Origin: Hydrolagus colliei
Lineage: Eukaryota
NCBI GenBank assembly: GCA_035084275.1
Contig: CM068759.1
Location: 1,736,001-1,800,000 of the forward strand
Reading direction: 5' to 3'
Length of the DNA: 64,000 nucleotides
Part shown: positions 23,001 through 25,242 of the stretch, piece after piece
Layout of the letters: every line of letters starts with the position of its first letter
How positions within the stretch are numbered: the first letter of the stretch is position 1
Program-made: the position numbers and the translations under genes
The notes under the pieces: model-generated
The model's input: the letters and a program-made list of their open reading frames with translations, nothing else
Databases searched by the model: none
What the model was told of the DNA's origin: nothing

Positions 23001-25242
23001 CCAATCATCGTCCACTTCAGTGTCAGGCTGTCATTCATCTGTCGGTAACTTTTGGCTGATCCACATTCTGCCTTCCTTGCAGCAAAGAGCACTATTTGAA
23101 TACGGCTTCTTTATTGGAGTTTAGGAGCTGTTTGGGAAACATGGCATGGAGCAGATTTGTTCGTTCCATTCTAGTAACGTTAGCCATTTGAGGTGTGAGA
23201 CTCGAAACCATCTTGAGGTGAACAGCCTAAGTTAAAGAGTTTTGGTTTTGGGGTTTTTCTGCCAAATTCTAAGAGACTTGGTAAAGCTTTAAGGTGCCAC
23301 AGTGACTTTTGGATTTTTTTTTGGTACAATATTGGCAGACCAGAATTTGTCAAGGTCAACGAGACCAGGTTGGTGACAATGACGGTTTCTAAGTCTCTCG
23401 CCTTGAATACTATTGTTACACTTATTAATTAGGCATGATCCAAACCGTGGCAATATCTCATCATTTCAGAATCTCTGCTCTCTGTCTTTTACTTCACTGC
23501 TCCTGATCCAATGTATTTTATAAACGCAAAGCAAACATGAAAATGATGCTTCTCATCTCCAACAAGGGATCTGGACCTTTGTTAAATATTTAGAAAACCT
23601 GTACATCACCCACCCAATCTGGCATCCGCAAGTCACAAAATATACAGTCAGTTCACTTTACGGTATACTCTGTGAAGCGCTTTGAGACGTCTCGAAGATG
23701 TGATAAGGCACTGTAGCAAATGCAAAGATTATTATACATTATTATTGCTGGGTGTAGGCACTGGGATGTGATCCTAGGTAACAATTTCAAATTGTTTGCT
23801 GAGAGAGGAACATATCAATCCAGGTTATCTGCCGGCTATGATCTCAAACTGGAAGTGGTGTGGTGTGGCTTTTAACATAAATCATTATTACCAGAAATAA
23901 GGCCTGACCTAAATAACACACCAAGAATAATTGTTTTGCTTATGATTTTAGAGTGGAAATGATCAACTGAATTCTAATCTCAATGTGTGTGCCCTCATAC
24001 TACCACTAATAATAAAATACCTGGATGAATTACAATAAAACCTGCAACATTTAGTATGGAACAATAGACCAGTTGAGTACGTTACCAATGCTTTATTCAA
24101 GACTGATCCTGTTTATGTTCAGGAAAAGCTGCCGAGTGGAGACTAAGCAATTTTCCAGAGCGGAGGAAGGCAATCAGCAAAACATTTTTTTAAAAATTGT
24201 GAGTGTCCTTAAGTGACTCTTGCAAAGCTTGGAGGAGCAAACTAGAGGGCAGCAAAATAGAGAACAGGGACCTTTTCTTTTGCTGCCTGCACTATTATGG
24301 TTATGCTAAAGAGACATAAATATGAAGAAACACTAAATTATGGGAGAAGATATCCAACTAAAATATCCATAGATATTATTGGGTTGTCTGAGATTTCCAG
24401 ACTTATGTCAATAGTGCTTTTTGTTGCAAGGATGAACTTGTCTTTGTATTGTCATTTGTCTTCATCCCAAATGTCCTGGTCTGTTGTTCTTCACTAGGCT
24501 CTAGGCTTTTGCCTTTCAATTTTGCTGATGATGGTCATACTACACAGCCTTTGAAATAGGAATGAATACATGGCTTGTACATGGAAGGGGTTGAATGGAC
24601 TTTTAATGGAAAAGGTATTAGTATTTGTAACCTTATTCCGATTTTTTTTAACAGAATATTAACGTAATAAGGAGAGCGATGGGATGGGCAATTTTCATAT
24701 TACGCCTGTGCTATCTGTGTTAATATTTGAAAGTTAATACATGCTTCATTAATTCATTGCCATTTCAGGTATGAGCATCTTCTTGTGCTTCTAAATGATA
24801 ACAAAATAAATAAAAACACATATCTTTTTGTATGCGGAATGCGCTACACAAACGTAATTTTGTAGTTGTTGTTGTATCTCTGCACTTATTATTTGACATT
24901 ATCCTTTAATCCGGCACCTTGGGATTAGGGTTAGGGTCTTGCTGACGTGAAAGGTGCTATACAAATGTAATTTTGTATTGTATGTTTATTGTCCAGTATA
25001 AGATGCATTGCCTTCTTTAAAGCTCAGCAGTATTTTTACTGGTTTAAAACTGATTCCAATTTTTTTTTTTTAAAAAAAGATCCAAAACACTCAATGAAGC
25101 TACTTTGTTCTTTTCTCAGATGGAATGTTCAAGTTCCACAGCAACAACATCTGGACAACAGACAGCAAGTCATGAACCGACCACACCTGATCCAGCTCGC
25201 CATTTATTCTCCTTTTCCTGGCTGAATGCTCTTACTAAGTAG
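14393..25242 (+). CDS. TRIM101: Muscle RING-finger E3 ligase, TRIM55-like (MuRF4/TRIM101 type), join(14393..14560,15520..15668,16198..16363,16548..16643,19359..19592,19704..19726,19824..19948,20695..21731,22660..22947,25120..25242), ~802 aa
   Basis: RING ([25 protein letters not shown]...CPSC), MuRF-specific box ([25 protein letters not shown]), B-box2, coiled coil, COS region, acidic tail, TRIM55-like C-terminus [12 protein letters not shown]. All phases are consistent (2409 nt). The MuRF family call is firm; MuRF4 over TRIM55 is inferred from the DNAJC5/UCKL1 context. Confidence 0.8.
14662..15008 (+). mobile_element. Full-length tRNA-derived SINE in MuRF intron 1
   Basis: A box TAGCTCAGGGG, B box GTTCGAATCC, internal (CA)n, core TGTGCGCAACTGGCTGCCGCG, ATT tail. 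Confidence 0.9.
15520..15668 (+). CDS. TRIM101: MuRF exon 2 (C-terminal half of RING, MuRF box)
   Basis: [60 protein letters not shown]. Confidence 0.9.
15702..15753. repeat. (CA)n microsatellite
   Basis: Interrupted CA dinucleotide run. Confidence 0.95.
16198..16363 (+). CDS. TRIM101: MuRF exon 3 (B-box 2)
   Basis: [65 protein letters not shown]. Confidence 0.92.
16409..16505 (+). repeat. (GGGT)n tetranucleotide repeat, G-quadruplex-capable
   Basis: About 22 GGGT units inside the 184-nt intron 3. Confidence 0.95.
16548..16643 (+). CDS. TRIM101: MuRF exon 4 (coiled coil, 96 nt)
   Basis: [43 protein letters not shown]. Confidence 0.9.
16755..17092 (+). mobile_element. Full-length tRNA-derived SINE nested in an antisense SINE
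   Basis: TGGCTCAGTGG...GTTCGAATCC...AAGCGCTTTGGGACGTC...GTGAAAAGCGCTATATCAAATGCAAGG(ATT)n. Confidence 0.92.
17093..17201 (-). mobile_element. SINE 3' half; its extreme tail is displaced to 16732-16750
   Basis: ATATAGCGCTTTTCAC...GCGGCAGCCGATTGCGCACA. Confidence 0.85.
17622..17754. other. Assembly gap (133 N) in MuRF intron 4
   Basis: Run of N. Confidence 1.
19359..19592 (+). CDS. TRIM101: MuRF exon 5 (coiled coil, 234 nt)
   Basis: [23 protein letters not shown]...[21 protein letters not shown]. Confidence 0.92.
19704..19726 (+). CDS. TRIM101: MuRF exon 6 (23 nt)
   Basis: [22 protein letters not shown]; the short exon typical of TRIM genes; it supplies the required phase. Confidence 0.88.
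19824..19948 (+). CDS. TRIM101: MuRF exon 7 (COS region)
   Basis: [52 protein letters not shown]. Confidence 0.88.
20015..20060. repeat. (CAC)n(CAT)n trinucleotide repeat
   Basis: Visible directly in intron 7. Confidence 0.9.
20490..20647 (+). mobile_element. SINE 3' half
   Basis: TGTTTGTGGGACACTACTGTGCGCAATTGGCTGCC...GTGAAAAGCGCTATATCAAATGCAA plus ATT tail. Confidence 0.85.
20695..21731 (+). CDS. TRIM101: MuRF exon 8 (1037-nt acidic, low-complexity tail)
   Basis: [21 protein letters not shown]...[16 protein letters not shown]; open, in phase, E/S/A/P-rich. Confidence 0.85.
22660..22947 (+). CDS. TRIM101: MuRF exon 9 (288 nt, LYPSWYK motif; probably a cassette exon)
   Basis: [14 protein letters not shown]...[14 protein letters not shown]...PSPVAQ |GTCAGT; phase 0-0. 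Confidence 0.8.
24498..24554 (+). CDS. Candidate alternative MuRF exon encoding a hydrophobic C-terminus [18 protein letters not shown]
   Basis: Pyrimidine tract plus CTAG acceptor at 24496-24497; phase 0 matches the exon 8 and 9 donors; resembles the TRIM55 B-isoform exon (from memory). Confidence 0.55.
   Translation, partial: ALGFCLSILLMMVILHSL
25120..25242 (+). CDS. TRIM101: MuRF last coding exon
   Basis: [52 protein letters not shown] at 25240-25242; AATAAA downstream at 25687 and 25875. Confidence 0.88.
   Translation: MECSSSTATTSGQQTASHEPTTPDPARHLFSFSWLNALTK

Follow-up and report, generated by a model that had tools for sequence, protein, structure and literature searches.

An ancient alternative exon of a chimaera MuRF4 gene, with a hydrophobic C-terminus that may serve as a tail anchor

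Introduction

The last intron of a MuRF gene in the chimaera Hydrolagus colliei contains a short hydrophobic reading frame behind what looks like a splice acceptor. This raises two questions: is it an exon, and what would a muscle E3 ligase that ends in it do? A preliminary description of the locus had taken it for a hidden alternative exon, akin to the B exon of TRIM55, which would give a tail-anchored ligase. MURF2 was the subject of papers in 2002, and the founding paper on MuRF4 is said to date from 2014. The known isoform in this comparison, MURF2B or p60B, belongs to skeletal muscle and has an extra exon and a highly hydrophobic end (PMC3353113, PMC3047806, PMC7555135, as far as their available text goes). 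The one functional study of this human isoform among the papers found credits a LIR (PMC3790703, available part). A literature search, mostly of papers accessible without subscription, turned up nothing in print about a MuRF4 B isoform, about how old the exon is or about a MuRF2 tail anchor.

Locus and gene identity

The window, i.e. the whole stretch of 64,000 nucleotides that was analysed, carries a ten-exon MuRF gene on the plus strand, from 14393 to 25242 in the exon model. Exon 1 (14393..14560), with the ATG and the start of the RING, was placed by tblastn with protein P0001 of Callorhinchus milii (95%), by Pfam and by the exon model. The exon model and tblastn also gave exons 2 (15520-15668), 3 (16198-16363, where Pfam adds the B-box), 4 (16548-16643), 5 (19359-19592), 6 (19704-19726) and 7 (19824-19948), which together (15520..19948) carry the B-box, the coiled coil and the COS, as well as exon 8 (20695..21731), a long acidic low-complexity linker. 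Exon 9 (22660..22947), 79% identical to C. milii, ends in phase 0 at a CAG-GTCAGT donor. Exon 10 (25120..25242), 90% identical, supplies the default A-type C-terminus, which ends in an RHxFSFSWLN motif. Exons 1-9 join to 762 stop-free codons, and all eight inner junctions of the ten-exon model are AG/GT. RING and B-box were matched by Pfam on the window exons themselves; the COS and TRIM_CC matches were obtained on the C. milii orthologue P0003 and are weak (E 0.16 and 0.4, the COS at residues 266-314). P0001 is the closest relative in the protein collection, with 92% identity over the N-terminal 311 columns and 79% in exon 9.

The gene order within the window is DNAJC5-MuRF-CRF-UCKL1-like. 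A DNAJC5 exon adjoins the MuRF gene; the further neighbours are a CRF-family ORF (CRH2 or CRH1) on the minus strand and uridine-kinase/UPRTase exons of UCKL1 type. The available part of PMC9353778 places crh2 together with trim101 and dnajc5 in a synteny and paralogon analysis, and the dnajc5 and crh2-type synteny expected of MuRF4/TRIM101 is present here. In a tree of 32 rows (unrooted, 18 rows on the MuRF4 side, no TRIM63 row), the window, C. milii and elasmobranch rows join gar and teleost trim101 and are split from TRIM55, TRIM54 and lamprey at 100/99. By tree and gene order the gene is thus the MuRF4/TRIM101 of a holocephalan, as previously assigned; the name is that used in PMC5795982 (available part). 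With other MuRF4/TRIM101 genes it shares RING, B-box, coiled coil, COS, acidic linker, clade and gene order. A B-type isoform of MuRF4/TRIM101 is known only from database models, and none is described in the papers found.

The B exon in intron 9

The candidate exon, here called the B exon, lies in phase 0 within intron 9, downstream of exon 9 (22660-22947) and upstream of the last exon (25120-25242). The preliminary description of a pyrimidine tract and a CTAG followed by a phase-0 exon of 18 residues proved accurate: the acceptor region (24432..24497) is free of AG for 66 nt and 75% pyrimidine at -23..-4, on par with the constitutive acceptors of the gene, and the coding part (24498..24551) consists of 18 uncharged codons with a mean Kyte-Doolittle value of 2.32. 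The same end is present in P0003.

An uncharged 18-mer this hydrophobic follows only one of the 551 acceptor-like sites in the window, namely that of the B exon. Among 4260 six-frame pieces of the window, the B exon was also the top match for a profile of 13 homologous tails (E 7e-12) and for one of ten bony-vertebrate tails without sharks (E 2e-6, the next best match at E 2.5-2.8). A profile of four TRIM55 tails, frog and paddlefish included, found it at E 8e-5; all these profiles were built without chimaera sequence. With bony MuRF4 tails alone it was still the top match (E 0.08), and with two mammalian tails it was not found among the 4260 pieces. Hence the claimed likeness to the TRIM55-B exon holds as homology via intermediates, whereas the mammalian tails by themselves give no significant match. 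A chance intronic reading frame was rejected on the count of acceptor sites and the profile matches.

An error in the sequence at the TGA that ends the frame (24552..24554) was likewise rejected, as P0003 has the same stop. Whether this codon reads TGA or TGG had been raised beforehand. The C. milii model stops at the same place, and the codon is TGA in the genomic contigs of run X1, which are maybe the window's own source and not independent; elsewhere the position holds Trp in elasmobranchs and is without it in coelacanth MuRF4. Over 21500-26000 the X1 contigs contain no splice joints, and in 24314-24969 they agree with the window at every letter, without a gap. The B tail is not covered by any Pfam model (an importin-repeat match, E 0.012, fell below the cut-off), the ESM Atlas gave no usable match with P0003 residues 890-935, and the window has no match to the third C-terminus seen among osteichthyan MuRF4 models (best E 5.5). 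We regard it as almost certain that the B exon is real and old, and it is probably used in Hydrolagus colliei.

Distribution and age

In C. milii, the UniRef entry A0A4W3IG84 (P0003) runs from exon 9 into the same 18 residues, without a single difference, and then stops. Its cluster has three members, and in the other two the protein finishes with the A-type last exon; the sole RefSeq model retrieved (P0002) is an A form. The C. milii B form is a single UniRef model that may rest on homology. Between the two chimaeras the B tail is identical at 18/18 positions, exon 9 at 79% and exon 10 at 90%; set beside the tail identity, 0.79^18 is 0.014 and 0.92^18 is 0.22. The 18/18 against 79% in exon 9 weakens the alternative of a decaying exon that the preliminary description had kept in view.

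A homologous tail was found in 56 of the 262 collected proteins, 13 of which had built the profile. The profile was specific to this family: against 1.84 billion representatives it gave 18 matches at E <= 0.001, 17 of them carrying the tail and one a repeat protein; this protein (P0127) and P0051/P0085, whose hydrophobicity flags lie elsewhere in the protein, were removed before tails were counted. The presumed conservation at other MuRF4 loci is borne out in rays and sharks (P0007, P0012, P0053, P0058-60, P0122) and, among bony vertebrates, in gar (trim101 X4), bowfin, tarpon, electric eel, percomorphs, coelacanth and crocodilians. MuRF2 carriers are whale shark, paddlefish, coelacanth, frog, gecko, snake and mammals including primates. 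In frogfish, four of five trim101 models use the B exon; RefSeq isoforms are usually backed by RNA reads. The bowfin (P0146) and coelacanth (P0074) models splice it to the exon preceding exon 9. As public gene models in many species already contain the B exon, it is not hidden, contrary to what had been thought.

No retrieved MuRF4 model of squamates, turtles, platypus, marsupials, caecilian or bichirs ended in the tail, in groups where sampling is thin (e.g. 0/5 and 0/8 cluster members), and MuRF4 itself was missing from the placental models retrieved. The tail was found in none of three shark TRIM54 and none of five lamprey proteins, which are single isoforms among the best 120 of 380 matches listed. 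The B exon is present in both paralogues in sharks and in bony vertebrates and is therefore older than the split between MuRF2 and MuRF4, in line with the earlier proposal. Judged by its sequence, it is a paralogue of the known MURF2B (p60B) exon. The two have in common an extra phase-0 exon before the last exon, a very hydrophobic C-terminus and the same A/B choice. MURF2B differs in being a product of the MuRF2 paralogue and in a frameshifted end in the last exon, which the chimaera tail lacks; the window tail ends after 18 residues, without W-x-x-I.

Properties of the tail

Core positions 2-15 hold no charged residue in 490 positions of 35 distinct cores, a count that is partly circular because the tails were collected with a profile of hydrophobic tails. 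A polar residue or proline is seen once in 455 core positions. The tails are 21-84% identical and nearly every core column has three to seven residue types, so that hydrophobic residues exchange freely, but conservatively, across lineages. Cys is found at position 5 in 18 of the 35 cores and near the end of most tails.

The part after the core is variably cut, while the core itself is never lost among the tails: these end at 18 residues in chimaeras, at 22 without Trp in coelacanth MuRF4, at 28 in ray-finned MuRF4, at 26-29 in crocodilians and at 31-33 in sharks and in MuRF2. The TGA of the window coincides with a column where other jawed vertebrates have Trp; the description of it as such is correct, with W-x-x-[ILV] there in 36 of 39 distinct tails. 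The exceptions are the chimaeras, coelacanth MuRF4 and one alligator model, in which W-x-x-I is absent and the hydrophobic core retained.

In the B form of the window, with 780 residues, no other segment is as hydrophobic (best value elsewhere 1.86, inside the RING, vs 2.39), and at most 30 residues follow the core in 41 of the 46 full-length carriers. The tail is thus a single hydrophobic segment (Kyte-Doolittle 2.3-2.4) within about 30 residues of the C-terminus. The lack of strong charge noted earlier applies to all 18 residues in the window; across the tails about 15 precede a polar His, Gln or Arg at 16-17, and a bilayer is spanned by about 17-22 residues. The first 16 residues of the chimaera tail have a low hydrophobic moment (0.19) and no polar face. 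AlphaFold2 predicted one helix, residues 2-30, for 13 tails, which is weak evidence as almost any such peptide is called helical.

Membrane anchor or LIR

An uncharged hydrophobic core near the C-terminus, the only such segment of the protein, has the form of a tail anchor, albeit with a short core. From this form it seems likely that the tail inserts into a membrane. On balance we favour, with moderate confidence, an ancient alternative exon, paralogous to that of MURF2B, which gives rise to a tail-anchored, membrane-bound form of MuRF4. Splicing of the B exon would swap the soluble A-type end for a single hydrophobic helix that would anchor a muscle E3 ligase in the membrane. The conserved Trp would lie at the membrane interface, where this helix has its distal end, and W-x-x-I would face the lumen, beyond the reach of cytosolic LC3.

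Work on MURF2B speaks to both sides of this proposal. The protein exists, is located on vesicles and has a C-terminus called "very hydrophobic", and its isolated tail, as a GST fusion, reaches LC3 vesicles (PMC3790703, available part). Against an anchor stand the core of about 15 residues, short for a membrane span, and the finding in the same source that vesicle localisation depends on an intact RING: RING-dead MURF2B loses its co-localisation with p62/LC3/NBR1 vesicles. Hence the tail is not sufficient to hold the full-length protein on these vesicles.

In the available text of PMC3790703, PMC3353113, PMC7555135 and PMC3047806 the tail of MURF2B is treated as a LIR and not as a membrane anchor. 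The corresponding explanation, that the tail mainly binds LC3 and that the chimaera copy is a remnant without function, accounts for the W-x-x-[ILV] of nearly all tails and for the co-precipitation and co-localisation of the GST-tail with GFP-LC3 (PMC3790703, available part). Yet the LIR, assigned at 522-526, was tested there by fusion of the whole tail; the main text of that paper contains no motif point mutant that we could find, nor the words "tryptophan", "transmembrane" or "fractionation".

The tails themselves also fit this explanation poorly. LIR-type motifs are expected to have acidic residues before the core, and a bound LIR is extended. However, none of the 20 Trp-bearing tails (22 scored) has an acidic residue in the four positions before Trp, and the predicted helix is unlike an extended LIR. 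In the window a stop replaces the Trp of the [WFY]-x-x-[LIV] core, as it does in P0003. Where chimaeras, coelacanth MuRF4 and one alligator model have lost the motif, the core stays, and the LIR-less tail is still 18/18 between two chimaeras. We therefore consider a LIR adaptor unlikely.

More tentatively, and with some doubt, we extend membrane insertion to both paralogues: MuRF2 and MuRF4 could have had a splice switch from a sarcomere/microtubule ligase to a tail-anchored ligase since before sharks and bony fish parted. Human MURF2B might then be an overlooked membrane-inserted ligase whose "LIR" would be the Trp with which the anchor meets the membrane interface; chimaeras and the coelacanth might be natural deletion mutants with the anchor only. 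The chimaera tail is a natural LIR-less control that would separate the anchor idea from the LC3-motif idea. Both paralogues conserve the exon across jawed vertebrates and have kept its core, while the LIR has disappeared on two occasions; this offers a different and directly testable account of human MURF2B.

Stop codon and 3' end

The stop shared with P0003 is followed by 12 formerly coding codons (24555..24594), recognised by comparison with elasmobranch tails. They are identical to five such tails at 8-10 of 12 positions, the 18 codons before the stop at 10-14 of 18; in the same comparison exon 9 reaches 31-40% and exon 10 52-58%. Selection on the protein would explain such equal conservation around the stop no better than would a poison exon or a constraint at the DNA level. 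The chimaera lineage evolves slowly, and the likeness behind the stop could be accounted for by a stop that was fixed late in such a lineage, or else by constraint at the DNA level if the exon is a regulated one.

Three donors follow. The GT at 24590, 35 nt after the stop and at the homologous position, scores 3/9 against the consensus and is as poor as had been stated. The site at 24615 (5/9, 60 nt), put forward as a better one, does exceed it and would preserve the frame into exon 10; a stronger candidate (7/9, 214 nt) lies at 24769, within 24615..24774, and behind it come tandem AATAAA motifs (24805, 24809) and a GU-rich stretch, a candidate poly(A) site (24805..24880). If the B exon is terminal by way of this site, there is no downstream junction.

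It could be that in chimaeras inclusion of the exon is an off-switch, either because splicing from 24769 or 24615 makes the transcript a target of NMD or because the bare hydrophobic C-terminus is a degron. NMD is triggered when a stop precedes a junction by more than 50-55 nt, and bare hydrophobic C-termini are subject to BAG6-type clearance. The two better donors are both past this distance, conservation is equal before and after the stop, and no RefSeq B model was retrieved for C. milii. On the other hand, the tandem AATAAA with its GU-rich stretch provides a terminal-exon route, four of the five elasmobranch models terminate exactly where the homologous donor lies, as though it were not used, amino acid exchange is conservative across lineages, and MURF2B protein was detected in myoblasts (PMC3790703, available part). 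All in all an off-switch appears improbable.

A helix that stays in one leaflet or packs on proteins, for example as an oligomer core, and possibly with an S-palmitoylated Cys, would suit the short core, the Cys at position 5 and near the tail end, and the need of MURF2B for an intact RING (PMC3790703, available part). We think it less probable still, in view of the low hydrophobic moment without a polar face and the near absence of polar or proline residues from the core.

Recoding of the TGA to TGG by A-to-I editing, or read-through, so that a full shark-like tail is still made, would explain the well-matched residues behind the stop and the frame kept by the 24615 donor; it is very improbable, since 24520-24590 has no complementary partner longer than 10 nt within 19000-30000, the RNA fold of 24450-24750 is no better than shuffles (z -0.38), an Rfam scan of 22900-27000 gave no match, SECIS included, the context is TGA-AAT instead of the CUAG read-through motif, the conserved Ile of the post-stop motif is Asn in the window, and the ancestral stop has apparently shifted by one base. 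K-G-stop closes four of the five elasmobranch tails; in the window, the TGA at 24592-24594 is one base out of that frame. Judged from the elasmobranch proteins, this suggests a one-base insertion near 24590 after coding constraint had lapsed. Membrane insertion thus remains, with the moderate confidence expressed above, the best single account, ahead of a LIR adaptor, an off-switch, a monotopic helix and recoding.

Comparison with other membrane ligases

If MuRF proteins are inserted into membranes by the B tail, they could reach substrates of the sarcoplasmic reticulum, endosomes or autophagosomes, and an anchored MuRF could recruit A forms by heterodimerisation. It would also bring membrane-linked targets of MuRF2, for example SNX5 (PMC12515711, available part), within reach. 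TRIM55 would then join the membrane E3 ligases; the available part of PMC2198940 lists 46 transmembrane RING ligases in its Table 4, with TRIM59 and RFP2 but not TRIM55 among them. TRIM13 (RFP2) and TRIM59, the C-XI TRIMs, are RBCC E3 ligases with a C-terminal transmembrane segment (PMC10445537, available part). In both of them the anchor is always present, and it shares no sequence relationship with the B tail, as the tail profile does not match them. The B tail of the window, by contrast, belongs to a C-II TRIM and would be optional, depending on splicing.

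Other MuRF C-termini

The lamprey MuRF models (P0152-P0156) carry the end motif of the A type, and thus the A exon, the default last exon, is older than the jawed vertebrates. No B exon, the alternative exon encoding the hydrophobic tail, was seen in the same lamprey models. In ray-finned fish, the MuRF4 tails (P0006, P0013, P0124, P0145 and others) stop at position 29, the site of a second Trp in sharks. These ray-finned tails end in a C-x-x-C-[ST] motif, which could possibly provide palmitoylation sites.

A third kind of MuRF4 C-terminus, with a W-L-x-D-like motif at its end, occurs in gar, bichirs, crocodilians and squamates (proteins P0143, P0082-84, P0065/67/69, P0016 and other squamates). 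It was sought in the window but not found; the homology between its fish and reptile forms is not significant.

Exon 8 of MuRF4 (20695-21731, 1037 nt) codes for an acidic low-complexity linker. In C. milii (elephant shark) this linker is expanded by a tandem 13-residue repeat that is mostly missing from the window copy. MuRF4 models in cartilaginous fish reach lengths of 800-1340 residues.

Genomic neighborhood and contig coverage

An intact CRF-family precursor ORF (27019-27486, reverse strand) lies tail-to-tail with MuRF4 (TRIM101). Judging from synteny it is likely CRH2, whose role in chondrichthyans is termed unstudied in PMC9353778. DNAJC5 exons encoding the J domain and cysteine string of cysteine string protein lie at 3571-4254 (forward strand). 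Since exons of a UCKL1-like uridine kinase/UPRTase gene (46254-46532, 61594-61950 and 63187-63483, reverse strand) follow beyond the CRF-family ORF, the order is DNAJC5-TRIM101-CRH-UCKL1.

Coverage by the genomic contigs of run X1, possibly the window's own source, was thin or nil over the last MuRF4 exon and 3' UTR (25124-25727), a kind of hole that filters can produce. A run of 133 N lies at about 17620-17755. At 23634-23736 and 24942-24983, a short repeat of very high copy number raised the depth in run X1 into the millions; many further copies are scattered across the window.
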